Under the pieces are notes generated by a model that ran no database searches, was not told the origin of the DNA, and saw only the letters and a program-made list of their open reading frames with translations. The position numbers and the translations under genes are program-made. Below, in pieces: positions 2,603-23,264 of a stretch of DNA of 32,000 bases (position 1 is its first letter; every line of letters begins with the position of its first letter). The stretch lies in contig OY760660.1 of the NCBI GenBank assembly GCA_963663995.1, forward strand, positions 990,001 to 1,022,000, read 5' to 3'. The DNA comes from Erysipelotrichaceae bacterium (lineage in GTDB: Bacteria; Bacillota_I; Bacilli_A; Erysipelotrichales; Erysipelotrichaceae).

Positions 2603-3472
2603 ATGATCATCGATATTTTAAGCAAAACAAAAGACCTAACTATTCAAGAAAGAGCCGTCGCCACGTATATTAAAGAAAATCCAAAAGATATTTTAAACGT
2701 TAGTATTCATGATTTAGCCATTTTAACTTACACAAGTGCAGGTACAATCTTGCGTTTATGTAAGAAGATGGGTTTTAAAGGATATTCAGATTTTAAATAC
2801 CAATTCGCAAGTGAGTATCAAACTCTACTTTATACTCAATCGCAAAATAACTTTGATTTGTTCTCTGATGAAACTTCATTAGATGAACTCATTGAACGTA
2901 TGCCACTCAGTTTCTTTAGATCTATTGAACAAACAATGACTACGCTTGAAAAACAACAAATGATTCGAATCGTTAAAAAAATTAATGAAGCAGATGAGTT
3001 AATTATCGATGGAACCAGTCTTTCTTATAAAATAGCTGATATGCTAGCGTATAAGTTTACTGATGTTGGTTTTTTCGCACGATCTTTCTCAGGCGTAAGT
3101 TGGTCACATTTAACCGCAATAAAAGAAAATAATAAAAAGGCTTTAGCTATCATTGTCTCTTTTTCAGGTGAAAATAAGCTAATGATTAATGATACAAAGA
3201 TTTTAAAAGATTTAGGCATCCCATATATCCTCGTATCATCAAACATTGAGTCTTCTATGGTTAAAGATGCTGACGAATTCATTCGTATCTTCTTCTCTCA
3301 AGTTGATTACTTGGCTTCTTCTCGATTTGGAACTGTTGTCCAAGCCATCTTTGATAATTTGATTGCGATTAACATCCACTTCAATAAGCTCTTCTTTAGG
3401 TCTCATCATGAACAGATTGATAAAACTTTCGAATTAACAGAAGCAATGAAATTACCTAAACAGGACTCCTAA
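2603..3472 (+). CDS. RpiR/MurR-family transcriptional regulator (HTH + SIS phosphosugar-binding domain), copy 1
   Basis: The N-terminus has the RpiR HTH pattern (LTIQERAVATYIKENPKDILNVSIHDLAILTYTSAGTILRLCKKMGFKGYSDFKYQF). The C-terminal part is SIS-like (LIIDGTSLSY..., IIVSFSGEN). Confidence 0.85.
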   Translation: MIIDILSKTKDLTIQERAVATYIKENPKDILNVSIHDLAILTYTSAGTILRLCKKMGFKGYSDFKYQFASEYQTLLYTQSQNNFDLFSDETSLDELIERMPLSFFRSIEQTMTTLEKQQMIRIVKKINEADELIIDGTSLSYKIADMLAYKFTDVGFFARSFSGVSWSHLTAIKENNKKALAIIVSFSGENKLMINDTKILKDLGIPYILVSSNIESSMVKDADEFIRIFFSQVDYLASSRFGTVVQAIFDNLIAINIHFNKLFFRSHHEQIDKTFELTEAMKLPKQDS

Positions 3473-3487
3473 GAGTTCTGTTTTTTT
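3460..3487 (+). terminator. Rho-independent terminator of rpiR copy 1
   Basis: ACAGGACTC (3460-3468) / loop CTAA / GAGTTCTGT (3473-3481), with one G.U pair, followed by T6. The hairpin overlaps the stop codon. Confidence 0.7.
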
Positions 3488-3504
3488 ATCTTTTATCATA
3501 AACC

Positions 3505-3533
3505 CACAAAAAAAGGAATCCGAAGATTCCTTT
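3505..3533 (-). terminator. Rho-independent terminator of EIIC copy 1
   Basis: Read on the minus strand: AAAGGAATC-TTCG-GATTCCTTT followed by TTTTGTGGGTTT. This is a 9-bp perfect stem with a tetraloop. Confidence 0.75.
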
Positions 3534-3559
3534 ATATGCCCAGATTCAATTGTCTGAAA

Positions 3560-4840
3560 TTATTCAGCTGCACCTTGTTCTTCAGCGTATTTAGCTTTAT
3601 CCCAAGCAGCGATGAATGGGAAGTAGATTAAACCAGTTGTTACGAATGTTACAACTTGGAGTAAAACAACACGAACATCACCATTACCGATATAGAAACC
3701 GGATAAGATAATTGGAGTTGTCCAAGGAGCTGCAAGACCTGGTAGACGACCTACAAGACCTGATGAGATAGCTAAGTAAGAAATAACAACTGAACTCATA
3801 GGAGCTAAGAAGAATGGAATCATCATCATTGGGTTCATGATAATAGGTAAACCGAATGTAACTGTTTCATTGATATTGAATAGACCTGGACCCATTGATA
3901 AACGACCGATATATTTGATTTGATCAGATTTAGCTAAGAAAGTCATGATGAATACAAGTGATAAAGTAGCACCTGAACCACCATTACGTACTAAGTTAGC
4001 CATGAATTCATTAGTAACGATATAAGGTAGAGCTTCACCAGCTTGAGAAGCAGCTAAGTTTGATAATGTAGCAGCTTGCCAGATTGGTGTAAATACAGAA
4101 CCAACAACGTTAGCACCGTGAATACCAACAAACCAGAATAATTGAACGAAGAATTCAGCCATTAATGTTCCGAATAAACCTGTACCTAAAGCAGTTAAAG
4201 GTTGTTGTAGAACGATCATAATGAAGTCTGAGTAAGTTACATAGCTTGTTTGCATGAAGATGAAACGAACTACTGTCCAGAATACGATAGCGATAGCAGC
4301 AGGTGTTAACGCCATGAATTGATTGGAGATTGCAGGTGGAACTTGTTCAGGAAGTTTGATTGTCCAACCTTTTTCTAATACAAAGTCATAAATTAAGCTA
4401 GTAACAATCGCAACTGTCATACCAGCAAATAGACCTTGAGCACCTAAGAATTGAGTAGCATAGCCACCAGCTTCTTGTTGGTGTAATAAAATGAAGAAAC
4501 CTGATAGAGCGATCATAGCTGCAGGTAAAGCAGGTTTACCTTTGTGTGTAGTGAATGCGTAAGCAACACCGATTGTAGCTACGATAGCAACCATACCCAT
4601 TGTTGAAGCGTAGATAACACCCCAGTTAAACCATTTCCAATTTTCACCGAAAACAGATAACATCATGTTTTGATATGCATCAACAGGTAATTCAGCAACA
4701 ACGATAACCATTGATCCAACGATCATAAGTGGTAATGAAGCAACTAACCCGTCACGGAGTGATCCGAGAAAAATATTTTGTTGAAGTTTAGCTGCAATAG
4801 GAAGAAATTTTTCTTCTAATAAACGTGTAAAACCATCCAT
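3560..4840 (-). CDS. PTS EIIC component, lactose/cellobiose (Lac) family, orphan copy 1
   Basis: 426 aa polytopic membrane protein. The N-terminus MDGFTRLLEEKFLPIAAKLQQNIFLGSLRDG is typical of CelB/LicC-type EIIC, and it carries the conserved LPEQVPP and FNINETVTFGLPIIMNP motifs. No EIIA or EIIB gene is adjacent. Confidence 0.9.
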   Translation of the reverse strand: MDGFTRLLEEKFLPIAAKLQQNIFLGSLRDGLVASLPLMIVGSMVIVVAELPVDAYQNMMLSVFGENWKWFNWGVIYASTMGMVAIVATIGVAYAFTTHKGKPALPAAMIALSGFFILLHQQEAGGYATQFLGAQGLFAGMTVAIVTSLIYDFVLEKGWTIKLPEQVPPAISNQFMALTPAAIAIVFWTVVRFIFMQTSYVTYSDFIMIVLQQPLTALGTGLFGTLMAEFFVQLFWFVGIHGANVVGSVFTPIWQAATLSNLAASQAGEALPYIVTNEFMANLVRNGGSGATLSLVFIMTFLAKSDQIKYIGRLSMGPGLFNINETVTFGLPIIMNPMMMIPFFLAPMSSVVISYLAISSGLVGRLPGLAAPWTTPIILSGFYIGNGDVRVVLLQVVTFVTTGLIYFPFIAAWDKAKYAEEQGAAE

Positions 4841-5093: not shown

Positions 5094-5576
5094 CTATTTG
5101 AGTATTTTTGTTTGAATCCAGGTTTCAAGTTCTTTATCTTGATCTGTTTCATTTCGTAAATTCAAGCCTTCTAAAACTGTAGAATAAGGAAAATAGGGCT
5201 TAATATCAGTACTTTTTTTATGTGACCTTGCCCCTTCATGGGTACAAAAAGCAGCCACTTTCTTATCCATCAATCGTAATTGACCCACTAAATATTTGAG
5301 TGGTTCTGGAATTCCTTCCCACCAATTAGGATAACCAAACAAGACAATATCAAAACTTGACACATCAATCACACCATTTTTATTTATGTGATGAGGATTT
5401 TCTACACTTTCCTTTTCAATCACCTTTATCGGAGATTTTTGTGTATTTGGATAATCTTTACTAGGGTTGACTTCGAAAAGCACACCATGTGTGAGTTTCT
5501 TTAATTTCTCCGCCACTCCTTTTGTATTACCAGAGTGACATAAATAAAATATTGCAACCTTTTTCATATTATCCAT
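5094..5576 (-). CDS. Flavodoxin-family protein
   Basis: 160 aa. The N-terminal FMN phosphate loop is KKVAIFYLCHSGNTKGVAEKL, and later FGYPNWWEGIP resembles the short flavodoxin-like fold. The start may instead be the ATG at 5567 (MKKVAIF...). Confidence 0.7.
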   Translation of the reverse strand: MDNMKKVAIFYLCHSGNTKGVAEKLKKLTHGVLFEVNPSKDYPNTQKSPIKVIEKESVENPHHINKNGVIDVSSFDIVLFGYPNWWEGIPEPLKYLVGQLRLMDKKVAAFCTHEGARSHKKSTDIKPYFPYSTVLEGLNLRNETDQDKELETWIQTKILK

Positions 5577-5620
5577 GTTCTATTGTACGTGAAAAATCAA
5601 ATTATTTTCACTAAATTTAA

Positions 5621-6550
5621 TTATTCATATAATGCTGTTGATAAATAACGTTCTCCATTATCAGGTAATAAGACTAAAACCTTTTTGCCTTTATTCTCTG
5701 AACGTGATCCATATTCAATGGCAGCATGTAATGCAGCTCCTGATGAGATTCCAATTAAGAAACCTTCGTTTGTCGCATTTAAACGGGCTTTTTCAAAAGC
5801 ACTATCCAGTTCAACAGTAATAACTTCATCGTAGATTTGAGTATTTAATGTATTCGGAATAAACCCTGCACCGATACCAGCAATTTTATGTGGGCCTGCA
5901 GTTCCTTTCGTTAGTACAGGTGAATCAATCGGTTCAACCGCAATAACTTTAATTCCATTTACTTTTTCCTTTAAGTATTTACCAGTTCCACTAATAGTAC
6001 CACCAGTACCAACTCCAGCCACAAAGGCATCTAATGTCCCCTCAAACGCTTTCATGATTTCAGGACCCGTTGTTTTATAGTGCGTATTTGGGTTTGCTTC
6101 GTTTTCAAATTGTGAAGGCATAAAACTATTTGGAATTTCATTCAGTAGCTCTGCCGCTTTCGCATTTGCACCCTTCATTCCTTTAGCAGCTTCCGTTAAT
6201 ATCAGTTGTGCACCATAGGCTTTCATTAACTTGCGACGTTCAATTGGCATACTTTCTGGCATGGTAAGAATGACTTTATAACCTTTAACTGCCGCAACTG
6301 AACATAAACCAATACCAGTATTACCACTTGTTGATTCAACAATAGTTGCGCCTGGTTTTAATAATCCTTTACTTTCAGCATCTTCAATCATTGCTAAAGC
6401 GATACGATCTTTAACACTGCCAGCTGGATTAAAACTTTCTACTTTTGCATATAATTCAAAGTTTAAACCCAGTTTCTTTTCTAGTCTTTCTAAACGAATA
6501 ATCGGTGTGTTTCCCACAAGTTCTAAAGATGAATTGTATATATTTGACAT
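5621..6550 (-). CDS. cysK: Cysteine synthase A (O-acetylserine sulfhydrylase), PLP-dependent
   Basis: [25 protein letters not shown] (PLP lysine), [19 protein letters not shown] and ISSGAA are all in canonical CysK order. Length is 309 aa. Confidence 0.9.
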
Positions 6551-6574
6551 AGTGTACTCCTTTTACCTACTAAC

Positions 6575-6603
6575 ATTATAGGTAAGTATCTCTTCTTTAT
6601 CAA
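6575..6603 (-). promoter_or_regulatory. Sigma-A promoter of cysK
   Basis: Minus strand: TTGATA (6603-6598) - 17 nt - TATAAT (6580-6575). It lies ~25 nt upstream of the cysK ATG with AAAGGAG between. The leader is too short for a riboswitch or T-box. Confidence 0.6.
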
Positions 6604-6623
6604 GTAAAGCAATCATAACACAT

Positions 6624-6646
6624 AAAAACCATTGATTTCTCAATGG
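6624..6646 (-). terminator. Rho-independent terminator after the sulfatase gene
   Basis: Minus strand: CCATTGA-GAAA-TCAATGG followed by TTTTT, 9 nt after the sulfatase stop. Confidence 0.75.
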
Positions 6647-6654
6647 CTTAGATA

Positions 6655-8127
6655 TTATCTTTTATCGCGTTTATTTGGGACAAAGTCACCAGTTTCTATC
6701 ATCCGATAGAGTAGTTTAGAACGCATCAGTTCAATTTGTCCTTGATACTCTGGCGCATCAATCACGTTATTGAGTTCTAGTGGATCTTTATCTAGATCAT
6801 AGAATTCATGTTTTTCATATAATCGATACGTATATTTGAAGTTCTTCATCCGTACCATAATTGCTTTGGTATGTTCAGGTCCTTCTGATCCTTGTGTACT
6901 TAAACGAGGATAGTATGGCGATTCAGGTCCATGTCCTCTTTCCATCGCTTGTGTTTCACCATGAATACGTCCACCTTCACATAAAACTAATTCTTTATGT
7001 TCAGGATTCCCTGCAATCGCATCAACTAAGGATTTTCCAAATTGTGTATAAGGCAATTCGACCCCTGTCATTTCAGACACCGTCGCACTCAAGTCTGCAA
7101 GTTCCACTAAAGCTTTAGACACACCTGTCTTCACTTTAAAATCTTTGGATGGTTTTACGATAAGTGGAACCTTACAAACAGGGTCATCAAAGAGGTTTTG
7201 TGCTTTTTCAGCTACCCCATAATCCGTTGTGTAATCTCCATGATCACTAAATATAAAGACTGAACTATTATCATAGAAATCATGTTCTTTTAACTTATCC
7301 ATGAGTTGACCAAACTGTTCATCAAAACGCATGGTCATCGCAAGATAGGTTGCGCGAAGTTCAGAAAACCACGCTTCATCAAAGGCTTCTTCTAATCCTT
7401 GTTTCCCTACAATAGATGTCATCATCGATGGTTTATCCTTTAAGGTTCTCGCATCAGGACGACGAGCTAGTAATTTACTTCGATCAATGGCTGAATAATA
7501 AGGTTCTTCACATTGATAAGGAGGATGTGGATATATGAGTGTTATATAGATAAAGAAAGGTTTATCATTTCCACTTTTTGCTTTTCTATCAAGATAGTCC
7601 ATTGCGCTTTTTAAACAATTTTTATCCATCATGGAAAAGCTATCATCCCCTTCAACTTTTCCTACATAAAAGGAATAGAGTTCAGGTGATGGTTCAACTG
7701 GGTCGTGACCATGACCTTTAAACCCAGGATTTACTGGAGGTTCTACTTGACTTTCAAAACTTGCTCCACTGTAATATTCATGACAATAAGCTGCTTTAGA
7801 TTGATCCGCTGGAATAACATCATTACGACCAATCCAAATGACTTCATAACCAGCATCTTTCATCACTTTTAGAATGTTTGGATCATCTTGAGCAGTTAAA
7901 TAATGCATTGTACGATGCCCTCTTGTATGAGGATAGAGTCCCGATAAGAAACTGTGACGTGATGGAACACAAACTGGATTTTGGCAGTAGGCATTCTCAA
8001 ATGAAATCGCATCTGTTTCAACAATTTTGTCAAAACAAGGCGTTAAAGAAGCAGGATTCCCATGGTGCCCAAGGGAATCGCTGCGCATTTGATCAGCTAC
8101 GAAATAAACAATATTTGGTTGATTCAC
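6655..8127 (-). CDS. Cys-type (formylglycine-dependent) sulfatase, no signal peptide
   Basis: The N-terminus goes straight into the conserved first strand, PNIVYFVADQMRSD (metal-binding D/Q). The formylglycine signature C-V-P-S-R-HSFLSG has Cys53 at 7971..7969. The conserved FIFSDHGD metal/sulfate site is also present. GTG start at 8127 with AGGAG 8 nt upstream. No hydrophobic leader or lipobox is present. Confidence 0.9.
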   Translation of the reverse strand: MNQPNIVYFVADQMRSDSLGHHGNPASLTPCFDKIVETDAISFENAYCQNPVCVPSRHSFLSGLYPHTRGHRTMHYLTAQDDPNILKVMKDAGYEVIWIGRNDVIPADQSKAAYCHEYYSGASFESQVEPPVNPGFKGHGHDPVEPSPELYSFYVGKVEGDDSFSMMDKNCLKSAMDYLDRKAKSGNDKPFFIYITLIYPHPPYQCEEPYYSAIDRSKLLARRPDARTLKDKPSMMTSIVGKQGLEEAFDEAWFSELRATYLAMTMRFDEQFGQLMDKLKEHDFYDNSSVFIFSDHGDYTTDYGVAEKAQNLFDDPVCKVPLIVKPSKDFKVKTGVSKALVELADLSATVSEMTGVELPYTQFGKSLVDAIAGNPEHKELVLCEGGRIHGETQAMERGHGPESPYYPRLSTQGSEGPEHTKAIMVRMKNFKYTYRLYEKHEFYDLDKDPLELNNVIDAPEYQGQIELMRSKLLYRMIETGDFVPNKRDKR

Positions 8128-8162
8128 AATATATACTCCTAACTGAAACGATTAATAAATAA

Positions 8163-9467
8163 TTATTCTGCAACACTTTCTTCGTCTTTAATTGCTTGAT
8201 TATCCAACATTCTAGCAAATGGGAAGTAAATTAAGAAGCTCAATGCGACTAACCCTACTTGAACAATTGCTGTGATTGGGCCACCTGCAATAAATGCTGA
8301 GAAGATAAGTGGTGTCCCTGTTGGGATATTAACACCATTTAGATACGGTAGAATTCCTACTAATCTTAAAACATATGAGACTGTCCACAGAATAAGTGGT
8401 GTAAAGAAGAAAGGAATCATCATAATAGGATTCATAACGATTGGTGTACCAAATGTAATTGGTTCGTTAATTCCAACTAAGCTTGCGGGTAATGCGATAC
8501 GTCCTAAAGTTTTATAGCGTTCACTCTTCGCAAAGAAAGCATAGAATAATGCTAAACCAATCGTAGCACCACCTCCACCAATCATACCGAAGATAAACCA
8601 GTCAGATTGAACGATCATATTTGGTAATGCTGTACCCGCTTCAAGAGCAGCTAAGTTTTCTAAACTTAGAGGTGTGTAAAGTGCGCTTAAGAAAGGCATA
8701 ACAACTAAACCACCGTGAATTCCAAAGAACCAGAAAGTAGACACTAAGAATAAAGAAAGCATGAATGTGAATGGGCTAGCAGCCATTGATTGTAATGGTG
8801 CTTGCATTAGTGCATAAATCATTGCACTCATGTGTCCATATGAGGTTAAGCTGATTCCATAACGTAATGCTGCAAATACAATTGCAACAAGGAAGGCAGG
8901 AACTAAACTTGAGAAAGATGCACTAACCATAGGTGGAACACCATCAGGTAGTTTAAATGTCCAATTATTCTTAACAGCAATTAAATATACACGTGGAACA
9001 ATCAAGCCAAGTACGATCGCTGTAAATAAACCAGTTGCGCCTAACCATGATGTGGTTAAAGCATTACCGATAGAAACAACTTCACCACTAGTAGATGTGC
9101 CAGACACACCAAGTGGGATCATTAATATAAATACAAATAATGTAATAACACCAATAGCCGTAGCTTCTTTTTTGTAACCTAAGTTTTCAGCTAATGCTTT
9201 ACCAATACCAAATGAAACATACAAAGCTAACATATTAGTAGTAATACCAGGAATAAAACCAAAAATAGTTTTTAATCCAGTTGACGTTATTAAACTTTGG
9301 TACGGAGCCCAGTTTAATGCACCAAGTAATGTAAAGATTGCACCCATAATGGTAATTGGTAAAATTGTCATAAATCCAGACATTATTGCTTGCAAAGATT
9401 TATTTCCTTGAACCTTTAAAGCTACGGGTCCGAGTTTTTCTTCTAGAAAACCTGTAAATTTATCCAT
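8163..9467 (-). CDS. PTS EIIC component, Lac/cellobiose family, orphan copy 2
   Basis: 434 aa, paralogous to copies 1 and 3 (MDKFTGFLEEKLGPVALKVQGNKSLQAI..., LPDGVPP, GINEPITFGTPIVMNP). Strong RBS AAAGGAGAAATTT-ATG. A 35-nt gap separates it from the sulfatase start, so the two are probably one operon. Confidence 0.9.
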   Translation of the reverse strand: MDKFTGFLEEKLGPVALKVQGNKSLQAIMSGFMTILPITIMGAIFTLLGALNWAPYQSLITSTGLKTIFGFIPGITTNMLALYVSFGIGKALAENLGYKKEATAIGVITLFVFILMIPLGVSGTSTSGEVVSIGNALTTSWLGATGLFTAIVLGLIVPRVYLIAVKNNWTFKLPDGVPPMVSASFSSLVPAFLVAIVFAALRYGISLTSYGHMSAMIYALMQAPLQSMAASPFTFMLSLFLVSTFWFFGIHGGLVVMPFLSALYTPLSLENLAALEAGTALPNMIVQSDWFIFGMIGGGGATIGLALFYAFFAKSERYKTLGRIALPASLVGINEPITFGTPIVMNPIMMIPFFFTPLILWTVSYVLRLVGILPYLNGVNIPTGTPLIFSAFIAGGPITAIVQVGLVALSFLIYFPFARMLDNQAIKDEESVAE

Positions 9468-9522
9468 AAAATTTCTCCTTTTGTTTCAATGAATGTAATG
9501 GTACCGTTTACATCCTGTTTCT

Positions 9523-9551
9523 ATTAAACTGGATTATATTCCATTTGTCAA
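9523..9551 (-). promoter_or_regulatory. Candidate promoter of the EIIC2-sulfatase operon
   Basis: Minus strand: TTGACA (9551-9546) - 17 nt - TTTAAT (9528-9523). The palindrome ATGTAA-N9-TTACAT (9493-9513, with a GGTACC core) lies just downstream of the predicted start site. Confidence 0.4.
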
Positions 9552-9632
9552 TATTTTTTGAAATATTTTTTATTATGAAATTTATTTTAATACTTATTTA
9601 TAAGTACTGCTAAATCATGTTAAAATATTTAT

Positions 9633-10403
9633 ATGGTATTAAGTCCTCTAGAAGCCTTGGCAGCGAATATGCCAAACCTAACAAAAACCGAACAAAAAAT
9701 TGCTGAGTTTATTCTTAACGATCCAATTCTTGCGTATCAATCAGATACAGATTTTTTAGCCCAAGAAACTGGTGCTTCGAAAGCTGCCTTTATTAGACTA
9801 TGTCAAAAAATTGGTTTTAAAGGTTATTCAGAATTTAGGTTTGCTTTATCTCGATCAATGATTTCAAATTCGCCTGATTTCGTTTCTACTGATGAACCAA
9901 TTCAAAGAATTACAAATTCATACACTAAAGTCATCAATCAAATGAATGATGTGTTAGATATCAGTGAAGTAAATCAATTAGTCGATGCCATCATTAACGC
10001 TAAGCGGATTAAAATCTTAGGCTTTAATCGAACATTCTTAAGTGCTCAACAACTACGTATGCGTCTAGGAAAAATCGGTATCGATGCGGAAGCCATTGGT
10101 GATCAAACTTCAATGAGAGATATTGCCGAAATCCTACATGAAGATGATTTATGCATTATCCTATCCATCAAAGCATTAGATTATTATTTACCTGTAATAA
10201 ATTTATTAAATCTTAATAATTGTCCATCTACTTTGATCACAATGACACCTAATAATAAACTTGAAGAATCTGTTGATCATCAAATTATATTACCGATCGT
10301 ATCACGATTAACCACATATACTTTCCTTGATGATCAAGTAATCTACTTTATATTTATTGAAATCATCTTACACATCTTAGCTAAGAGACTACAAGAAGAT
10401 TAA
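9633..10403 (+). CDS. RpiR/MurR-family transcriptional regulator (HTH + SIS), copy 2
   Basis: LTKTEQKIAEFILNDPILAYQSDTDFLAQETGASKAAFIRLCQKIGFKGYSEFRFAL is the RpiR HTH, followed by a SIS-like domain (IKILGFNRTF..., CIILSIKA). It is divergent from EIIC copy 2. Confidence 0.85.
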   Translation: MVLSPLEALAANMPNLTKTEQKIAEFILNDPILAYQSDTDFLAQETGASKAAFIRLCQKIGFKGYSEFRFALSRSMISNSPDFVSTDEPIQRITNSYTKVINQMNDVLDISEVNQLVDAIINAKRIKILGFNRTFLSAQQLRMRLGKIGIDAEAIGDQTSMRDIAEILHEDDLCIILSIKALDYYLPVINLLNLNNCPSTLITMTPNNKLEESVDHQIILPIVSRLTTYTFLDDQVIYFIFIEIILHILAKRLQED

Positions 10404-10427
10404 AAAATACGGATATCCGTATTTTTT
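10403..10427. terminator. Bidirectional terminator shared by rpiR copy 2 and the anSME gene
   Basis: AAAAA-ATACGG-ATAT-CCGTAT-TTTTTT: a perfect hairpin flanked by an A-run and a T-run, sitting between convergent genes. Confidence 0.8.
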
Positions 10428-10430
10428 ACT

Positions 10431-11525
10431 TTATTTAAGATTATTCGCTATTTCCATCATGCTTTTATGAGCATGTTCTAAAAAGACTTGATAACCACAA
10501 TAGCCATTATCATCGAAGTAAACAATATTCATACGTTTACAGTTACCATGACAAATATTTTTAAATTTACATGTATTACATGCTGTACTCATTCGTTTGT
10601 CTTCCTTTAAGAATTCATGCAAAACACTACTTTTATGTAATTGCGATAATGAATCAGTTGTGATATTTCCGATTTTATACTCATCTAATACATAGAAATC
10701 ACAGGGAAATACATCCCCATTAGATTCAATCACCATTTGCGCAGAACAATACCCTAACATTCCACACATTTGTGGACGCACACCAATAAACATTGGAATG
10801 ATATTATCAAATAGTCCAACTGATAAATAGTTATCCTTTTGATATTCATCTTTCCATAAGTCGTAGAACACTTTATAAAAAGATGCGAATGATTGAGGCG
10901 TCAATGCTGCACTATTATCTTTTAAATCAAAATCAGGCAAACATGGAATCAATTGAACATGATCGAATCCTTCTTTTTGATAGAATTCAAATAAATCTTT
11001 AGGTGATTGTGCTAATCCTTCTGTTAATACTGTTAAAACATTAAAATCTATTTCAGCATCTTTCAAACATTGAATACCCTTCATAACTTTTTCAAATGTT
11101 TTGCCATCATGTGATATTCGATATTTATTATGATTTATCTCAAATCCATCTAAACTAATTCCCACTAAAAAATCATTCTCTTTAAATAGTTTTGTCCATT
11201 CTTCATTCAGTAATGTTCCATTAGTTTGAATAGCATAATGGATATTTTGATTATCTTTTTTTATTTGGTTTACCTTGTCGATAAAATAGTAGAAATAATC
11301 TATTCCAGCTAATGTTGGTTCGCCACCTTGAAAAGCAAAAGTAATATCGCTTCCATCCTCTACATCCAGTGTTTTATTGACTAAAATATCAACTGTTTCA
11401 TAAGTCATATTTCCAAACGAAAACTGCTGACGATGATCAGCAACATCATTATAAAAACAATAAGTACATTTTAAATTACATGCAGCAGATGCTGGCTTAA
11501 TTAAATAACTATAAGATTGAGGCAT
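10431..11525 (-). CDS. Anaerobic sulfatase-maturating enzyme (radical SAM, SPASM domain)
   Basis: The N-terminus YLIKPASAACNLKCTYCFY carries the CX3CX2C motif (C16/C20/C23). The GGEPTL glycine-rich SAM motif is present. C-terminal Cys clusters (CGMLGYC..., FPCDFY, CNTCKFKNICHGNCKR) are typical of the two auxiliary 4Fe-4S clusters of anSME. Confidence 0.9.
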   Translation of the reverse strand: MPQSYSYLIKPASAACNLKCTYCFYNDVADHRQQFSFGNMTYETVDILVNKTLDVEDGSDITFAFQGGEPTLAGIDYFYYFIDKVNQIKKDNQNIHYAIQTNGTLLNEEWTKLFKENDFLVGISLDGFEINHNKYRISHDGKTFEKVMKGIQCLKDAEIDFNVLTVLTEGLAQSPKDLFEFYQKEGFDHVQLIPCLPDFDLKDNSAALTPQSFASFYKVFYDLWKDEYQKDNYLSVGLFDNIIPMFIGVRPQMCGMLGYCSAQMVIESNGDVFPCDFYVLDEYKIGNITTDSLSQLHKSSVLHEFLKEDKRMSTACNTCKFKNICHGNCKRMNIVYFDDNGYCGYQVFLEHAHKSMMEIANNLK

Positions 11526-11643
11526 GTAACAATTTTAGCACATGTCTAAGAGTTATCAGACTTTAACAATTCGATATCAACTGCTTTGATGTATAACACA
11601 TACCCTTCAATTTTCATTTTAAGGTTAATGGCATAATCTTCAT

Positions 11644-12009
11644 TTAAGACAACACGGATTTGCGTCTTATTTTGACTTGTGTTGGTATGCAGATCGATAT
11701 ATTCATCTTGGTATTTAATGAAACGCACAAATTGACAAGATCGAAGCAATCACTTGTTTCATACCCATCATAATCTTTAAGTAATTTCTTTTCGTTTTCA
11801 ATGCCAGTAACCAAACTTTTTGCGAGTAAACTATCTACAGTAATACCAAACAGTTTAGCTAAATAACATATGTTTTGGATATCAGGCATTCCTAGCCCTG
11901 TTTCCCATTTAGTGATGGCTTGACGTGAAACACCAATTCTATATGCCAATTGTTCTTGCGAAAGATGATGTGTCTTCCTTAAATCTTTAATCGTATTCGA
12001 TATATTCAT
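11644..12009 (-). CDS. XRE-family helix-turn-helix regulator (reading frame appears disrupted near 11700-11750; see findings)
   Basis: The N-terminus IKDLRKTHHLSQEQLAYRIGVSRQAITKWETGLGMPDIQNICYLAKLFGITVDSLL is a Cro/C1-type HTH. RBS AGGGAGGA precedes the ATG at 12009. The overlapping ORF 11546..11749, in another frame, looks like the displaced C-terminus. Confidence 0.7.
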   Translation of the reverse strand: MNISNTIKDLRKTHHLSQEQLAYRIGVSRQAITKWETGLGMPDIQNICYLAKLFGITVDSLLAKSLVTGIENEKKLLKDYDGYETSDCFDLVNLCVSLNTKMNISICIPTQVKIRRKSVLS

Positions 12010-12269
12010 ATACTAATCCTCCCTAACTATATAAAAATCAGTAAGTTTCCCTACTTCTACCTTAATCGCATAATACTTATATTCTCAAGCAACGATTAGT
12101 TGCTGACTTAATATGATTAAATTACGCATATTTAGTCTAAATAATCTATAAATGACTAACATCAAAACGTACTGGGATATTATGTGAAATTTAAAAAAAT
12201 ATGAATATATAAACTAAAACTTAGCTATTTTCATATTTTTTTGATTATTTATGACAAGATATTTTTCTT

Positions 12270-13499
12270 TTAAATGAATGATTTTTTAACTTGTTTTAAC
12301 TTCAACAACACAAACATGATTGTTAATGTCATTAATTGCACAAGCATTAAACTAAAGAAGCCAAGCGCATAAGAATGGGTCACATCATAGATCATCCCCA
12401 TAATCACAACGCCACTTGCACTACCAATAGATATAAGTGATGTTAAGGATGCATAAACAAGATTTGATTCTTCTTTTGGATAAAAATATTTCGTTATTAA
12501 TGGAATTCCAACGGCTACTGCTGAATAGACTGATCCCATTAAAAATGACATTAATAATAAAATAAATTGAGAATTTTGTATCGGTAGAAAATTAAAACTG
12601 ATTTGCGAAATAAGATAAGTTGTCGCAATCACTAAACTTGCTTTGATTACCCCAAAACGATCACTTAACATGCCTAAAATAAACTTAAAGGATAAGTTAC
12701 CAAACATCGCTGCTGAAACCATTAGTGCACCGACAGAAGTTGTTTGATTAATGCTTAAACTAAAAGTTGGGAAATGTTGAATCATCGATGTTAAAGAAGA
12801 ACTCAACATTGTATAAATAGCTAATAGTATAAAAAAGAAATTAACATTCAGTTTGAGTTTTTGTGAACTTAGGTTTGTCTCATGGACTGTTTTAGCATTT
12901 GTGCCATACGCTAGTAAACCTCTATCTTGTGGATGAGGTTTTAACCATAATGTGCCAACAAACGTTAAAACAAACAATAGTATTCCCGTAAAAGCCATTC
13001 CATAACGCCAATTTGTAGAACTAATAATTAAATTAACAAGTGGATTAAATATAACACCAGTGATACCAGTAAAACTCATCACTAAACCGGTCACAAAACC
13101 ATGTTTTTCTTCAAACCAATTACCAATCAAATAAACAATCGGCGCAAGAGAGAAACTACTGGTTGCGATACCTCTGATGATAGATAAAGCATAGATTAAA
13201 ATTAGACTACTAGAAAAAGCAATTAAAACAGTTGATAAAGCAGCCACAATAACGCCTAATCTCATTATTTTATTAAAGTCTCTTTTAACCATAAACTGAA
13301 TCATAAAAGGACTTGAAAAGCCTGTCGCTAAGCTTGATAAAGTAAGCGTTAATGAGAGTGATGCAATTCCAGTATTTAGTTCTAAGCTCATTGGCAAAAA
13401 GAAAACGCCAGATACATTTTGGATAATTCCAATTGAGCTAGCAGCCATGGTGATTAATGAAATCAGTGTTAATTTGTAATAGATTGAACCTTTAAACAT
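12270..13499 (-). CDS. MFS transporter
   Basis: 409 aa with about 12 hydrophobic segments in a 6+6 arrangement around a central loop (HPQDRGLLAYGTNAKTVHETNLSSQKLK). The substrate cannot be identified from sequence. There is no clear SD at the annotated start. Confidence 0.75.
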   Translation of the reverse strand: MFKGSIYYKLTLISLITMAASSIGIIQNVSGVFFLPMSLELNTGIASLSLTLTLSSLATGFSSPFMIQFMVKRDFNKIMRLGVIVAALSTVLIAFSSSLILIYALSIIRGIATSSFSLAPIVYLIGNWFEEKHGFVTGLVMSFTGITGVIFNPLVNLIISSTNWRYGMAFTGILLFVLTFVGTLWLKPHPQDRGLLAYGTNAKTVHETNLSSQKLKLNVNFFFILLAIYTMLSSSLTSMIQHFPTFSLSINQTTSVGALMVSAAMFGNLSFKFILGMLSDRFGVIKASLVIATTYLISQISFNFLPIQNSQFILLLMSFLMGSVYSAVAVGIPLITKYFYPKEESNLVYASLTSLISIGSASGVVIMGMIYDVTHSYALGFFSLMLVQLMTLTIMFVLLKLKQVKKSFI

Positions 13500-13706
13500 T
13501 GTTGTAAGTGTAACATGTTTTTTTTGATAATTTTTTTCTATTTTAATGACTAAGTTGTTTTATTAAACAAGATACAAACATTAAGTTAAAAACAGCTGCT
13601 AGTAGCGTTAAAATTAATTGAAACATTATTGACCCTCTCACCCTATACTTATGCATCAACTTTAGCTATTCCAAATATAAATGGTAAAGAAACGCTTTGT
13701 AGCATT

Positions 13707-13731
13707 TAAAAAGTGAACAAATTGTCCACTT
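13707..13731 (-). terminator. Rho-independent terminator after fumC
   Basis: Minus strand: AGTGGAC-AATTT-GTTCACT (one G.U pair) followed by TTTTT, directly after the fumC stop. Confidence 0.65.
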
Positions 13732-13736
13732 CTTTC

Positions 13737-15104
13737 TTAAACCATTTTTTCAGCTTTAACCCATTCATCAAAATCTTCAGCACTAACAAGTTTTAAATCA
13801 ATCGCTGCTTGTTTAAGGGTGAGATTATTTTGATAGGCATATTTCGCAATCTTAGCCGCATTCTCATAACCAATATGTGGATTGAGCGCAGTCACCAACA
13901 TCAAAGATTGTTCAAGGTTTGTCTGAATTTTATCACAATTTGGTTGTATACCAACTGCACAATTATCATTGAAACTTTTCACCCCATCACTTAATAATTG
14001 AATCGATTGAAGCATATTATATGCAATCACCGGCATATAGACATTGAGTTCAAAATTACCTTGCGATGCCGCAAATCCAATCGTCGCATCATTTCCCATG
14101 ACTTGTGCACAAATCATAGTTAAGCTTTCTGCTTGAGTAGGGTTTACTTTGCCTGGCATAATCGATGATCCTGGTTCATTTTCAGGAAGACTGATTTCAC
14201 CTAAACCTGAGCGCGGACCACTTGCCAACCATCTGACATCATTCGCAATTTTTAATAGATTAGCTGCTAAAGCTTTTAGAGCACCATGTGTGTTTACCAT
14301 CGCATCTTTACTACTTAAGGCATGGAATTTATTCTTAGAAGAACTGAAATTTAACTCTGTTTCTTTTTTAAGAATCTCGGCGACTTTATCACCAAAATCA
14401 GCTGGTGTATTTAAACCTGTCCCAACCGCTGTTCCACCAATCGCAAGTGGAAAGAGATATTGTAGGGATGTTTCAATCATTTGAATATTCTGTTGAATCA
14501 TGTATGCCCAGCCACTGATTTCTTGACCAAGGGTTAAAGGGGTTGCATCTTGTAAATGCGTCCGTCCAATTTTAACAATCGTTTGATACTTAGCCGATAG
14601 TTCAAATAAGGTTCCATAGAAGATTTCTAAACTAGGAATTAAGTGATAAACAAGCGCTAAAGCTGTCGATATATGCATGGCTGAAGGGAAAGTATCATTC
14701 GAACTTTGACCTTTATTCACATCATCATTTGGATGGATGATATTAATACCTGCTTTTTCATTTGTGAGAAATGAGATCACTTCATTGATATTCATATTGG
14801 ATTGAGTTCCAGAACCTGTTTGCCAGACTGATAATGGAAATTGATCATCATATTTCCCAGTCAATATTTCTGTACAAGCAAAATCGATTAAATCAGCTTT
14901 TTCTTGACTGAGTAAATCCTTTGATAGATTTACCTTGGCGGCAGCCTTTTTAACTTGAACTAAGGCATAGATTAATGCTAAAGGCATTTTTTCTGAACCG
15001 ATTTTAAAATTCTCTAAACTACGTTGAGTTTGAGCTTTCCACTTCTTATCAGTCGAAACTTTAATTTCTCCCATGCTGTCTTTTTCAATTCTGAAATCAG
15101 ACAT
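13737..15104 (-). CDS. fumC: Class II fumarate hydratase
   Basis: The N-terminus (R)IEKDSMGEIKVSTDKKWKAQTQRSLENFKIGSEKMP matches the FumC pattern. The GSSIMPGKVNPTQ lyase signature and the TGSGTQSNMN and SSNDTFP motifs are present. Confidence 0.9.
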   Translation of the reverse strand: MSDFRIEKDSMGEIKVSTDKKWKAQTQRSLENFKIGSEKMPLALIYALVQVKKAAAKVNLSKDLLSQEKADLIDFACTEILTGKYDDQFPLSVWQTGSGTQSNMNINEVISFLTNEKAGINIIHPNDDVNKGQSSNDTFPSAMHISTALALVYHLIPSLEIFYGTLFELSAKYQTIVKIGRTHLQDATPLTLGQEISGWAYMIQQNIQMIETSLQYLFPLAIGGTAVGTGLNTPADFGDKVAEILKKETELNFSSSKNKFHALSSKDAMVNTHGALKALAANLLKIANDVRWLASGPRSGLGEISLPENEPGSSIMPGKVNPTQAESLTMICAQVMGNDATIGFAASQGNFELNVYMPVIAYNMLQSIQLLSDGVKSFNDNCAVGIQPNCDKIQTNLEQSLMLVTALNPHIGYENAAKIAKYAYQNNLTLKQAAIDLKLVSAEDFDEWVKAEKMV

Positions 15105-16249
15105 TAGTTATTTTCCTTCCATGCTTTCTCAACTGCATCAGCCACTTTATCTGCCACTGTCGGATTAAAGATACTTGGAATAACACATTCAGGATTTAAA
15201 TCTTTCGCATCCACTGAGTCAGCAATCGCATATACAGCAGCCATTTTCATTGCTTCAGTAATACGTTTTGCGCGAGCTCTAAGCGCACCTTTAAATAAAC
15301 CTGGGAAAGCTAAGACATTATTAATTTGATTATTAAAATCAGATCGACCGGTTCCAACCACATAAGCTCCTGCTTCAAGCGCAAGATGTGGAAGAATTTC
15401 TGGATTAGGGTTTGCCATCGCAAAGATAATCGCTTTATCATTCATCGATCTAACCATATCTTGAGAAAGCGTATCAGCAGCTGAAACGCCAATAAAGACA
15501 TCCGCATCAAGCACTGCGTCTGCTAACTTTCCAGATATATTATTTTTATTAGTATAAGCAGCTACTTCATAAGATGTATGGTCTTTAGTTAATATACCTT
15601 TTGAATTACATACAATAATATCTTGTGCACCTAAAGCAATTAACATGTTCGCAATCGCTGTACCTGCAGCACCTGCTCCATTAATGACGATTTTTATATC
15701 AGTCATTTTTTTATCAACAAGTTTTAATGCATTAATTGTTCCTGCACATACGACAATTGCTGTACCATGTTGATCATCATGGAAAACAGGAATATCAATT
15801 TGTTCTTGTAGTTTACGTTCAACTTCAAAACATCTTGGAGCTGAAATATCTTCTAAGTTAATTCCACCAAAAGTAGGAGCTAAGTTTTTCACAATGAAGA
15901 CAATTTCATCGACATTTTGTGTTTCTAAACAGATTGGTATCGCATCTACATCACCAAACTGTTTAAATAGGATAGCTTTACCTTCCATAACTGGAATCGC
16001 TGCTTTTGCGCCAATATTACCTAAACCAAGTACAGCTGATCCATCTGAAACAACCGCTACCATTTTAGATTTTGCAGTGTATTCATATACTTTTTCAGGA
16101 TCTTCATGTATTTCTAGACAAGGAATGGCTACACCTGGTGTATATGCCAAACTTAAATCTTCTCGTGTTTCAACGGAGACTTTCGATTTTATTTCTAATT
16201 TTCCTACATTTTTACGATGTAATTCTAAAGCTTGTTCTTTGATGTCCAT
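15104..16249 (-). CDS. NAD(P)-dependent malic enzyme (short, bacterial type)
   Basis: ALELHRKNVGKLEIKSKV...LSLAYTPGVA, FHDDQHGTA and the GAGAAG dinucleotide fold are present. Its stop TAA overlaps the fumC ATG by 1 nt (TAATG), indicating translational coupling. Confidence 0.9.
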   Translation of the reverse strand: MDIKEQALELHRKNVGKLEIKSKVSVETREDLSLAYTPGVAIPCLEIHEDPEKVYEYTAKSKMVAVVSDGSAVLGLGNIGAKAAIPVMEGKAILFKQFGDVDAIPICLETQNVDEIVFIVKNLAPTFGGINLEDISAPRCFEVERKLQEQIDIPVFHDDQHGTAIVVCAGTINALKLVDKKMTDIKIVINGAGAAGTAIANMLIALGAQDIIVCNSKGILTKDHTSYEVAAYTNKNNISGKLADAVLDADVFIGVSAADTLSQDMVRSMNDKAIIFAMANPNPEILPHLALEAGAYVVGTGRSDFNNQINNVLAFPGLFKGALRARAKRITEAMKMAAVYAIADSVDAKDLNPECVIPSIFNPTVADKVADAVEKAWKENN

Positions 16250-16347: not shown

Positions 16348-16707
16348 TTATCTCTCTAAAATATGATCTAAACCCATTTCGATAATCTTTTGGACATGCT
16401 CATCATCCAAAGAATAATAAACATTTTTTCCTTCACGCCGACTTTTTACTAGTTTTGATTTCTTAAGGAGTGCTAATTGATGAGATATCGCAGACTTTGT
16501 CATATTCATGACAGCTGCAATATCACAAACACATAACTCTTCAGTGGCTAAAGATAATAGAATCTTCGCTCGTGTTTTATGGGCAAACATTTGAAAAACG
16601 GACGCAAGGGTATCAATCGTTTTCTCTTCCAGCATTTCTTCTTGGACATGTTTAATGGATTCAGGATGTGTTATATCACATTCACATAGTATTTCACTGT
16701 TTTTCAT
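16348..16707 (-). CDS. cadC: ArsR/SmtB-family metal-sensing repressor, CadC-like
   Basis: The ELCVCDIA metal-site motif lies in helix 3, with N-terminal Cys residues (LCEC). The HTH is MTKSAISHQLALLKKSKLV, followed by the REGKNVYYSL wing. Confidence 0.8.
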   Translation of the reverse strand: MKNSEILCECDITHPESIKHVQEEMLEEKTIDTLASVFQMFAHKTRAKILLSLATEELCVCDIAAVMNMTKSAISHQLALLKKSKLVKSRREGKNVYYSLDDEHVQKIIEMGLDHILER

Positions 16708-16745
16708 AACTTACCCATATCATACCAAATTAATTTGTTTTTTAC

Positions 16746-16795
16746 TTGATAGTTGAATACATTTTCAACTATAATACAATTGAACAATCGTTCAA
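16746..16795 (+). promoter_or_regulatory. Promoter of the HMA/ATPase unit with two ArsR-type inverted-repeat operators
   Basis: TTGATA (16746-16751) - 18 nt - TATAAT (16770-16775). IR1 AGTTGAA-N6-TTCAACT (16751-16770) fills the spacer. IR2 TTGAAC-AATC-GTTCAA (16780-16795) lies just downstream of the -10. Both share the TTGAA(C)/(G)TTCAA half-site. Confidence 0.6.
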
Positions 16796-16809
16796 CTGTT
16801 GGAGGACTT

Positions 16810-17028
16810 ATGAAAAAAACAATGTTACTAGATGGATTAGAATGTGCTAATTGTGCCAATAAAATGGAGCGTGCTATATCTAAACTTGAAGGAGTCAACT
16901 TCGCAAGTGTCAATTTCGCCACAACTAAAATGATTATTGAAGCAGATGAATCTAAAATGGCTGAGATCGTTTCAGAAGCTAAAAAGATTGTAAAGAGTTT
17001 TGAACCTGACACAGAAGTTATTGGTTAA
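16810..17028 (+). CDS. Stand-alone heavy-metal-associated (HMA) domain protein
   Basis: MKKTMLLDGLECANCANKMERAISKLEGVNFASVNFATTKMIIEADE... shows a ferredoxin-like HMA fold with a CxxC metal site. GGAGGA lies just upstream of the ATG at 16810 (the track start at 16753 is TTG). The stop overlaps the ATPase ATG (TAATG). Confidence 0.8.
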   Translation: MKKTMLLDGLECANCANKMERAISKLEGVNFASVNFATTKMIIEADESKMAEIVSEAKKIVKSFEPDTEVIG

Positions 17029-18866: not shown

Positions 18867-18889
18867 CAGTTCAAAAGAACTGTTTTTTT
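18866..18889 (+). terminator. Rho-independent terminator after the ATPase
   Basis: ACAGTTC-AAAA-GAACTGT followed by T6, overlapping the stop codon. Confidence 0.8.
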
Positions 18890-18931
18890 GTGATATAGCC
18901 TTATTTACTATCTAAATATATCAATTTTTAT

Positions 18932-18948
18932 ATACCCTATAAGGGTAT
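18932..18948. promoter_or_regulatory. ATACCC-N5-GGGTAT palindrome (CsoR-type operator candidate, or a second weak terminator)
   Basis: The perfect 6-bp arms ATACCC/GGGTAT resemble the TACCC...GGGTA core of CsoR copper-repressor operators. The palindrome is also followed by TTTTATTTTT, so a terminator reading is possible. Confidence 0.3.
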
Positions 18949-19028
18949 TTTATTTTTATCTTTAAAAAGACTATACAAGTGAATATTTTTTTCTTATACT
19001 GTCTTTGCCTAGTATGTAGGTAGGGAGT

Positions 19029-19627: not shown

Positions 19628-19629
<2 letters not shown>
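19604..19629. terminator. Bidirectional terminator between the CueP-like gene and GH1 copy 1
   Basis: GTTGGAT-CTA-ATCCAAC followed by CCTTTTTTT on the plus strand and by TCTTTTCTTT on the minus strand. Confidence 0.65.
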
Positions 19630-21145
<1,516 letters not shown>

Positions 21146-21231
21146 TCATTTACTTAATAACTGCAAAACAAAAAGAAAAGGATAAGTTTTTCAAGAATGA
21201 AAGCCTATCCTTTTCAGTATTTTCATTGCTG

Positions 21232-23257: not shown

Positions 23258-23264
23258 CCTTAAT

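Follow-up and report, generated by a model that had tools for sequence, protein, structure and literature searches.

The window analysed here, a stretch of 32,000 nucleotides from the genome of an Erysipelotrichaceae bacterium (assembly GCA_963663995.1, contig OY760660.1, positions 990,001 to 1,022,000), contains a sulfatase gene directly behind the gene for a sugar permease of the phosphotransferase system (PTS). A divergent regulator of the RpiR family and a radical-SAM anaerobic sulfatase-maturing enzyme (anSME) lie beside the pair. The genes, control region and terminators of this locus are the following, with coordinates counted within the window.

6655-8127, minus strand: sulfatase of 490 amino acids (PF00884), second gene of the predicted operon
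8163-9467, minus strand: EIIC2, PTS permease of the Lac/cellobiose/chitobiose family, 434 amino acids (PF02378, TIGR00410), first gene of the predicted operon
9633-10403, plus strand: RpiR2, regulator with HTH_6 and SIS domains (PF01418, PF01380), divergent from the operon
10431-11525, minus strand: anSME with Radical_SAM and SPASM domains, convergent on RpiR2
6626-6649, minus strand: intrinsic terminator ending the EIIC-sulfatase operon, a 10-bp stem with a T-run
9468-9632, no strand assigned: divergent EIIC/RpiR control region with candidate promoters only
10401-10428, both strands: bidirectional terminator shared by the convergent RpiR2 and anSME genes, a 12-bp perfect palindrome with T-rich tails

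A preliminary description of this DNA had listed these genes and their motifs, a gap of 35 nt that separates the stop of EIIC from the start of the sulfatase, and a single terminator behind the pair. All are confirmed by open reading frames (ORFs), profile matches and folding. The sulfatase gene starts with GTG, and a ribosome-binding site, AGGAG, lies 8 nt upstream. The terminator (6649-6626 on the minus strand) folds at -15.3 kcal/mol with a z-score of -4.4, and none of 200 shuffled sequences folds equally well. The short gap and the single terminator indicate that EIIC2 and the sulfatase form a two-gene operon. With the divergent RpiR gene and the convergent anSME gene, this predicted operon makes up an accessory module of four genes.

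Candidate promoters are found in the divergent control region on the minus strand at 9562-9533 (10/12 match) and 9613-9584, and on the plus strand, toward RpiR2, at 9597-9626 with a TG extension. Since promoter-like sites are no commoner in the scanned region than in its shuffles, these sites are kept as candidates only. No palindrome is common to the 31 RpiR-EIIC intergenic regions compared for an RpiR operator, and the local imperfect repeats in the window are unconvincing as an operator.

The sulfatase matches PF00884 with an E-value of 3e-41, its residues 4-356 covering the whole profile (positions 1-301 of 301). Its motifs are ADQMR from residue 11 (D12 and Q13), CVPSR at residues 53-57 and SDHGD at residues 294-298. 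D12, Q13, C53, R57, D295, H296 and K308 are invariant in an alignment of 67 family sequences. The CVPSR motif is present in all 120 of the closest homologues, which are all about 490 amino acids long. The C. perfringens sulfatase studied by Berteau in 2006 reportedly has the formylglycine motif CIPSR instead, and probably belongs to a different family. The catalytic Asp, residue 12 in the window's enzyme, falls at position 11-13 in 104 of the 120 homologues, and in the few with longer N-termini the extensions are short and not hydrophobic. The window's ORF opens at the first possible start after the upstream stop, so that no longer N-terminus is available. Its maximum 19-residue Kyte-Doolittle hydropathy is 0.84, far below the level of a membrane segment. 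Because the ORF cannot be extended upstream and 120/120 closest homologues are leaderless, the sulfatase, and its family as a whole, is predicted to be cytoplasmic, and the intracellular location proposed earlier stands.

The conservation of this gene arrangement was followed in a survey with one genome per species. It comprised 79 loci (numbered L001 onward) with a sulfatase homologue of 38-89% identity, 74 of which were analysable. ORFs were called and matched to the window's proteins, the neighbouring genes were clustered, and representatives of the clusters were annotated. The closest locus, in a complete Erysipelotrichaceae metagenome-assembled genome (OY781039.1), has a sulfatase of 89% identity and the window's gene order. 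In 38 of the 74 analysable loci, which belong to many families, the distance from the end of an EIIC gene to the start of the sulfatase gene is between -20 and +150 nt, so the adjacency seen in the window is conserved, and the chief refutation named in the preliminary description, an adjacency that is not kept, does not apply. The adjacent EIIC is closest to EIIC2 in 36 of these 38 loci (37-70% identity), whereas EIIC2 shares only 31-33% identity with the three EIIC paralogues encoded in the window. Therefore, a dedicated EIIC subfamily appears to travel with the sulfatase. In 56 of the 74 loci a PTS permease is encoded no more than three genes away from the sulfatase, and the genes outside the core are unrelated between lineages. 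The pair, the divergent RpiR gene and the anSME gene are kept across Erysipelotrichales, Clostridia and Coriobacteriaceae, which upholds the earlier proposal that the sulfatase is tied to a PTS permease. This conservation is strong evidence that the EIIC-sulfatase pairing reflects functional coupling and not chance.

The loci fall into four architectures. In architecture A, to which the window belongs, a divergent RpiR gene precedes a Lac-type EIIC and the sulfatase, followed variously by anSME, TauE/SafE, a ChrA pair, EIIA-EIIB and a glycoside hydrolase of family GH1, or a DUF3604-like protein. It is found in Erysipelotrichales, Clostridiaceae, Lachnospiraceae, Pygmaiobacter, Faecalibacterium, Halanaerobium and Coriobacteriaceae. 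Architecture B, in Enterococcus, Listeria costaricensis and Pseudolactococcus, runs from BglG through a BglF-type EIIBCA, the sulfatase and anSME to TauE; in Amphibacillus (L016) the order is BglG, EIIBCA, sulfatase, GH1 and TauE. Architecture C consists of LicR, two EIIC genes, YdjC, anSME and the sulfatase, or of two EIIC genes, the sulfatase and two YdjC genes. Architecture D comprises basal relatives of about 46% identity from Paenibacillus, Bacillus and Chloroflexia, whose sulfatase genes lie beside glycoside importers of the GPH (MFS_2) or CUT1-type ABC kind. A neighbour-joining tree places this non-PTS clade at the base and nests the Bgl-type subclade within the Lac-type clade. The tree and the architectures therefore suggest that the sulfatase was handed between transporter families, always beside a glycoside importer.

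A comparison of the PTS-linked clade with the non-PTS clade brings out K111, R101, H399 and N84 as specific to the former. These residues could form a phosphate site in the PTS-linked clade, which we offer as a lead only. At the position that appears to correspond to the sulfate-binding Lys of the canonical GKxH motif, the PTS-linked clade has Arg101 and the non-PTS clade a Lys.

Some loci carry additional genes. A protein of about 505 amino acids with a faint DUF3604 match is encoded directly after the sulfatase in L040, L041, L045 and L078 (e.g. L045 11472-12989), and may be an additional pathway enzyme. Two tandem sulfatase copies are present in Beduini massiliensis (L002) and in a related Clostridiaceae MGYG genome (L003), at 8370-15782, followed by EIIC, a LacI-type regulator, a third sulfatase-like gene of 584 amino acids and anSME. 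This arrangement resembles an enlarged form of the module.

A sulfatase of this type depends on conversion of its active-site Cys, and the locus appears to provide for it. The window's anSME aligns over its full length (residues 5-364) with the C. perfringens enzyme anSMEcpe (4K37) at an E-value of 1e-79. It has the CX3CX2C motif at C16/C20/C23 and eight other Cys residues, at 254, 260, 275, 316, 319, 325, 329 and 343. The anSME gene is 2.3 kb from the sulfatase gene in the window, and lies within six genes of it in 33 related loci. The oxygen-dependent formylglycine-generating enzyme (FGE, PF03781) adjoins the sulfatase in the Enterococcus loci L017, L021, L029 and L037 (e.g. L021 11742-12602). 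L017, L029 and L037 have both anSME and FGE, as expected for facultative anaerobes, and the L021 locus yielded no maturase other than FGE. The presence of both kinds of maturase near its gene argues that the protein is a formylglycine enzyme.

In 33 loci with a nearby Lac-type EIIC (31 with only the Lac type and two with both PTS types), an RpiR homologue is no more than three genes away from the sulfatase, and in 30 of these 33 it is on the opposite strand just upstream of EIIC. The window's RpiR2 presumably senses a phospho-glycoside.

EIIC2 matches PF02378 (E 6e-44) and TIGR00410, the lacE subfamily of Lac/cellobiose-family IIC proteins (295.6 bits against a cut-off of 236), and stays below the cut-offs of the cellobiose- and chitobiose-specific equivalogs, so that the profiles assign it no particular sugar. 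Its residues 6-431 align to residues 3-432 of the B. cereus ChbC structure 3QNQ (E 1e-65). EIIC2 retains GIHG (His251) and INEP (Glu335), which reportedly flank the C6-OH of the sugar in the ChbC structure; it appears to retain the residues for C6 phosphorylation of its substrate. EIIC2 is an orphan with no adjacent EIIA or EIIB. One Lac-type EIIB/EIIA pair, in another operon, and two glycosidase genes are found elsewhere in the window.

26249-26572 and 26550-26885, minus strand: EIIB and EIIA of a Lac-family PTS (ORF list), in a different operon from the sulfatase
19628-21109 and 23265-24722, minus strand: two GH1 genes of the 6-phospho-beta-glucosidase type, by best NCBIfam matches

The EIIB/EIIA pair would be a candidate phosphoryl donor for EIIC2 in trans, and the GH1 genes candidate downstream hydrolases in trans. 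The orphan state of EIIC2, with EIIA and EIIB not adjacent, and the action of basal family members after non-phosphorylating importers are compatible with an EIIC that serves as a mere facilitator without phosphorylation. The sulfatase would then act on an unphosphorylated sulfated sugar, as in the ABC- and GPH-linked relatives. We consider this quite improbable because His251 and Glu335 are retained, the linked hydrolases are of phospho-specific GH1 types, and the window contains an EIIA/EIIB pair of the Lac family. Moreover, EIIA/EIIB homologues come directly after the sulfatase in L019, L020, L034, L049 and L059, in L039 they flank it, and the Bgl-type clade has a complete EIIBCA. The genes after the sulfatase, the complete EIIBCA of this clade and the conserved EIIC residues all point to a substrate that is phosphorylated on entry.

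The fate of the sulfate can be approached through a second set of transporters. A TauE/SafE or ChrA transporter is encoded within six genes of the sulfatase in 23 loci. Such transporters beside a leaderless sulfatase fit sulfate release in the cytoplasm followed by export. They also bear on the proposal that the enzyme is not a sulfatase in vivo, and is instead a formylglycine-dependent phosphoesterase or phosphonate-monoester hydrolase (PMH) acting on the PTS-made sugar phosphate. An AF2 model of the protein (pLDDT 91.7, pTM 0.93) has the S1 sulfatase fold, with TM scores of 0.65-0.77 to S1 structures. The nearest structures, none more than 22% identical, are choline sulfatase, SpAS1/2, PMHs, BT1918 (S1_46), an S1_7 ulvan sulfatase and an iota-carrageenan 2S sulfatase. 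The presence of PMHs and the promiscuous SpAS enzymes among the top structural neighbours speaks for a phosphoesterase. Against this, transporters of the TauE/SafE and ChrA families for sulfur oxyanions recur beside the gene, the set of active-site motifs is typical of S1 sulfatases, and removal of the PTS phosphate would waste the energy of uptake. A phosphoesterase in vivo is therefore very improbable. The best PDB sequence match is 6HHM (S1_7, E 1e-26), and the sulfatase reaches no NCBIfam equivalog cut-off. An assignment to an S1 subfamily was attempted by PDB sequence search and Foldseek, and was dropped because the matches were distant and spread across several subfamilies.

The genes that accompany the sulfatase point to the class of the substrate. 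GH1 homologues adjoin it in L011, L016, L033-35, L039, L073 and L078. The GH1 proteins encoded in sulfatase operons have their best matches to 6-phospho-beta-glucosidase subfamilies (L011 reaches 925.8 bits against a cut-off of 639), and all sulfatase-linked GH1s score well above the LacG models. The window's two GH1 proteins likewise match 6-phospho-beta-glucosidase subfamilies best, at 522 and 486 bits, both below the curated cut-offs. The earlier statement that the locus contains no glycosidase is true of the locus, and needs the addition that two GH1 genes and EIIA/EIIB lie elsewhere in the window. BglG with BglF-type components is the classical aryl-beta-glucoside system. A beta-glucoside substrate is likeliest because the linked GH1s are of phospho-beta-glucosidase types and relatives have BglG/BglF-type components. 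The same GH1s, together with EIIA/EIIB and the BglG/BglF-type subclade, tell against the monosaccharides of glycosaminoglycans and mucin that had been named earlier (GlcNAc-6S, GalNAc-4S and GlcNS). Most likely, to judge from the gene content, the non-reducing sugar of the substrate has a phosphorylatable C6-OH and the sulfate is elsewhere on the molecule. The earlier argument that the sulfate is not on the phosphorylated C6 is sound.

We consider it probable, with moderate confidence, that a sulfated beta-glycoside is phosphorylated on PTS import, desulfated in the cytoplasm and then enters the ordinary phospho-beta-glucosidase route. The analysis shows the gene identities, the operon structure, the conserved synteny and, from sequence, the cytoplasmic location; the substrate class, the phosphorylation, the order of desulfation and cleavage, what RpiR2 binds and where the freed sulfate goes are inferred. 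EIIC2 would import a sulfated beta-linked glycoside, most likely of the beta-glucoside type, whose sulfate would sit on the aglycone, the reducing residue or the O2-O4 positions of the sugar. Import would phosphorylate C6 of the non-reducing sugar, with the phosphoryl group coming from EIIA and EIIB encoded elsewhere in the genome. The anSME would convert Cys53 of the sulfatase into formylglycine without oxygen, and the active sulfatase would strip the sulfate ester from the phospho-sulfo-glycoside inside the cell. The product would be an ordinary 6-phospho-beta-glycoside, which housekeeping GH1 enzymes could cleave to hexose-6-phosphate and the aglycone. RpiR would control the operon in response to a phosphorylated intermediate. 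The module would thus be an adapter that turns a sulfated compound into an ordinary 6-phospho-beta-glycoside. Of the preliminary proposal, PTS-coupled desulfation in the cytoplasm is well supported by comparative genomics, and the list of host-glycan substrates is not favoured.

Several points weigh against this scheme. The window's module is without its own EIIA, EIIB, glycosidase or sulfate exporter, and the use of distant ones is assumed; domain and homology searches found no TauE or ChrA homologue in the window. The nearest structures include promiscuous PMHs and choline sulfatase at 22% identity or less, so that the substrate is not readable from homology. The anSME falls just short, by 7 bits, of the TIGR03942 cut-off (342.8 against 349.45 bits) and reaches 330 bits against 441 for PRK13758. 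The HTH domain of RpiR2 is clear (PF01418, 67.6 bits, E 1e-18), and its SIS domain is barely over threshold (PF01380, 26.6 bits against 25). YdjC in architecture C and a CE4-type deacetylase in L065 hint at N-acetylated sugars and not at glucosides. A literature search turned up neither biochemical nor expression data on members of this sulfatase family.

The deacetylases would fit a different substrate that comes close to the earlier proposal, a sulfated amino-sugar disaccharide of host or chitin origin (for example of the LacNAc, keratan or chitobiose type) that is released by the community, phosphorylated on its non-reducing residue and desulfated on the other. YdjC genes of the ChbG type lie beside the sulfatase in six loci (L014, L047, L051, L052, L054 and L056), and the CE4-type gene of L065 is from Paenibacillus. 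Chitobiose transporters are among the members of the Lac-family PTS, the structure nearest to EIIC2 is that of ChbC, and many carriers are gut bacteria. The analogous pneumococcal island described below aids fitness in mice; for that island, this implies a substrate of host origin (PMC3283741). However, the GH1 partners score as phospho-beta-glucosidases and not as LacG-type galactosidases, the BglG and BglF-type components of the Bacilli clade are typical of aryl-beta-glucosides, and the conserved core is without hexosaminidase, GH4 or nag genes. The pneumococcal sulfatase is also of a different subfamily, so its biology is not transferable. An amino-sugar disaccharide is accordingly unlikely as the substrate, and the glycone may differ between clades.

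A more specific candidate within the beta-glucoside class is dietary glucosinolate. The PTS would take it up as the 6-phosphate, desulfation in the cytoplasm would yield desulfo-glucosinolate-6-phosphate, and GH1 cleavage would then give nitriles in place of the toxic isothiocyanates. Glucosinolates are sulfated beta-(thio)glucosides that are abundant in nature, and the linked GH1s are of the phospho-beta-glucosidase type. In Companilactobacillus farciminis, PttS and PbgS import sinigrin, a sulfated beta-thioglucoside, through the PTS and cleave it as the 6-phosphate with a GH1 enzyme (PMC8660893). Gut bacteria including E. casseliflavus turn desulfo-glucosinolates into nitriles, and reviews suspect a bacterial desulfation of glucosinolates that would explain the nitriles, with the responsible sulfatase not identified (PMC6767122; PMC8492924). 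An operon of BglG, EIIBCA, sulfatase, anSME and TauE is present in E. gallinarum (L029) and E. entomosocium (L037), Enterococcus species near known glucosinolate degraders. The latter is a species of the casseliflavus group.

The C. farciminis system shares with our scheme the uptake and 6-phosphorylation of a sulfated beta-(thio)glucoside by a beta-glucoside PTS, followed by a GH1 6-phospho-beta-glucosidase. In contrast to the window, it works without a sulfatase, since the sulfate leaves spontaneously after thioglucoside cleavage and an isothiocyanate results. Its PTS permease is a fused EIIBCA, which the Enterococcus-type relatives also have, whereas the window has an EIIC of the Lac type. 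The evidence for glucosinolates is circumstantial. Halanaerobium, Amphibacillus sediminis, Youngiibacter and Listeria costaricensis, which carry the family alongside many gut bacteria, have no obvious glucosinolate supply and argue for a more general substrate, and the YdjC and CE4 partners of some clades do not fit. We therefore regard glucosinolate as an unlikely substrate. The same low likelihood applies to the broader idea that this family is the long-sought bacterial glucosinolate sulfatase of gut and plant-associated Bacillota, with desulfation of a phospho-sulfo-glycoside as a repeatedly evolved new metabolic step. If it were so, the enzyme would be, speculatively, a bacterial counterpart of the insect glucosinolate sulfatases. 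The missing bacterial sulfatase would then be found, and with it a step that decides whether cruciferous compounds become anticancer isothiocyanates or inert nitriles.

The sulfate itself, and not the glycoside, could also be the nutrient. This question arises from two genes downstream of the sulfatase.

5621-6550, minus strand: CysK (TIGR01139, 428 bits against a cut-off of 351)
5094-5576, minus strand: flavodoxin (Flavodoxin_4), by ORF list and Pfam/NCBIfam

The preliminary description drew the locus from 5094 to 11525 and so included both genes (5094-6550). They form a unit of their own, with a near-consensus promoter-like site (TTGATA-17-TATAAT) at 6603-6575, past the sulfatase terminator, and a terminator at 5036-5009, and they are not conserved with the module. 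As module parts, cysK and flavodoxin were rejected, being a separate transcription unit that occurs with the sulfatase in only 2/79 loci. If the module freed sulfate for cysteine synthesis and not for carbon use, the position of cysK immediately after the sulfatase would be explained, and in the Coriobacteriaceae locus L055 cysK adjoins anSME. Such scavenging is hardly credible. The cysK gene lies past a strong terminator, has its own promoter and seldom accompanies the sulfatase; CysK uses sulfide and not sulfate, and the window is without sulfate-reduction genes. Further, the anion exporters beside the sulfatases of relatives suggest disposal and not assimilation. A link of the cysK-flavodoxin unit to sulfur metabolism is possible but unsupported, and so is a role of the flavodoxin as reductant of the radical-SAM anSME.

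The nearest published arrangement is known from genetic work. Whether such an arrangement had already been described was left undecided in the preliminary description. In Streptococcus pneumoniae, the island SPH1922-SPH1930 encodes a ROK regulator, two Lac-family EIICs, EIIA, EIIB, a sulfatase, a sulfatase-modifying radical-SAM enzyme and TauE (PMC3283741; PMC3302838). The same studies report that the island aids fitness in mice and that no activity on 4-methylumbelliferyl sulfate was seen, and its substrate is not established. Like the window, the island combines a Lac-family PTS, a signal-less Cys-type sulfatase, an anSME-type maturase and a divergent regulator, and it shares the TauE/SafE exporter with many of the window's relatives. 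Unlike the window, it has a ROK/MarR-type regulator in place of RpiR, its own EIIA/EIIB and a ComA/NanE-like gene. The SPH1924-type sulfatase, recovered through a published qPCR primer (L081 11413-12888), is 22% identical to the window's. It is the orthologue of the E. faecium Mn-arylsulfatase EfAS (9KOQ), which it matches at an E-value of 3e-260, with BT1918 (S1_46) as the next best match; the paper on the 9KOQ structure does not discuss the genomic context. Orthology of the two sulfatases was rejected on the 22% identity and the different family. The pneumococcal island is thus an independently arisen analogue and not an orthologue.

Sulfatases of the pneumococcal type are encoded in PTS operons in L080-L083 (e.g. 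L081 6898-12888). A third PTS-linked sulfatase, with the motif CMPAR, is encoded behind BglG-EIIBCA with TauE at L008 13000-18500, in a Clostridiaceae genome that also has the window-type module. It is about 19-22% identical to both the window's and the pneumococcal sulfatases. At least three mutually distant S1 subfamilies (19-22% identity) thus occur in PTS operons with TauE in Bacillota, and PTS-linked cytoplasmic sulfatases have therefore arisen at least three times. A literature search for a characterised PTS-sulfatase system returned only the pneumococcal genetics papers, and nothing for the window's family.

The statement that the well-studied carbohydrate sulfatases of gut bacteria are exported has an exception in Bifidobacterium breve UCC2003, where an intracellular sulfatase acts on imported GlcNAc-6-S (PMC7326374, citing Egan 2016). 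As in our scheme, import comes first and desulfation takes place in the cytoplasm. The B. breve sulfatase, as Egan reportedly described in 2016, is encoded with an anSME, a dedicated transporter and a regulator, and the transporter is reportedly not a PTS. Unlike in the scheme for the window, there would then be no phosphorylated intermediate. The B. breve substrate is moreover a monosaccharide with its sulfate on position 6, where a C6-phosphorylating PTS could not add phosphate.

The periplasmic or surface S1 sulfatases of Bacteroides polysaccharide utilization loci and their anSME BT0238 resemble the window's system in formylglycine chemistry, in the need for anSME under anoxia and in the use of sulfated glycans (PMC9067506; PMC10154612). 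They differ in being exported and acting before inner-membrane transport, within Sus-type loci that have HTCS regulators (PMC9067506; PMC10154612). The best Foldseek match of the window's sulfatase is the choline-O-sulfatase BetC (PDB 6FNY and others; E 2e-29, TM about 0.74). BetC is a cytoplasmic S1 enzyme that acts after import of its substrate. It differs from the window's sulfatase in sequence (about 20% identity) and in its bet-gene context as opposed to a PTS context, and the window's protein scores 131 bits against a cut-off of 433 with the NCBIfam choline-sulfatase model.

PTS sugar operons, S1 sulfatases with anSME and intracellular desulfation are all known already, and a non-orthologous precedent exists; this family would combine them. 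Studies of how gut bacteria use sulfated sugars mostly follow the Bacteroides model, with exported sulfatases that act ahead of uptake. If our scheme is correct, widespread PTS import with internal desulfation in Gram-positive bacteria would be a second general strategy, with the phospho-sulfo-glycoside as a new intermediate. The module is compact, with four genes, should be open to experiment and has cultured carriers in C. paraputrificum, Eggerthia, Sharpea, Enterococcus and Listeria costaricensis. It may also help to explain the analogous pneumococcal virulence island.

Beyond the cysK-flavodoxin unit lies a second divergent pair of an RpiR and an EIIC gene (2603-4840).

2603-3472, plus strand: RpiR1, by ORF list and Pfam/NCBIfam
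3560-4840, minus strand: EIIC1, an orphan Lac-family EIIC, by ORF list and Pfam/NCBIfam

Each of these genes has its own terminator, and no enzyme gene accompanies them. EIIC1 is 33% identical to EIIC2 and RpiR1 is 26% identical to RpiR2. The pair is kept only in the closest relative, L001.

The EIIB/EIIA and GH1 genes are part of a large PTS region of the beta-glucoside/cellobiose type (19628-30217). Two Mem_trans (AEC-family) permeases are encoded between the GH1 genes at 21232-23145. EIIC-EIIB-EIIA at 24895-26885 is followed by a LicR/Mga-type PRD regulator at 27005-28906, and a MupG-like 6-phospho-N-acetylmuramidase (29048-30217) ends the region. On the other side of the module, the anSME gene is adjoined by an XRE-family regulator (11644-12009) and an MFS transporter (12270-13499) whose best match, a weak one, is of the lactate/oxalate-formate type. 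An XRE gene also neighbours anSME in L001 and L009. A metal-resistance cluster at 16348-19595, unrelated to the module, encodes an ArsR/CadC-type repressor, a CadA-like P-type ATPase and a CueP-like copper-binding protein. An ORF of 352 amino acids at 1357-2415, beside lplA, has no Pfam match and a counterpart of 65% identity at the same position in L001.

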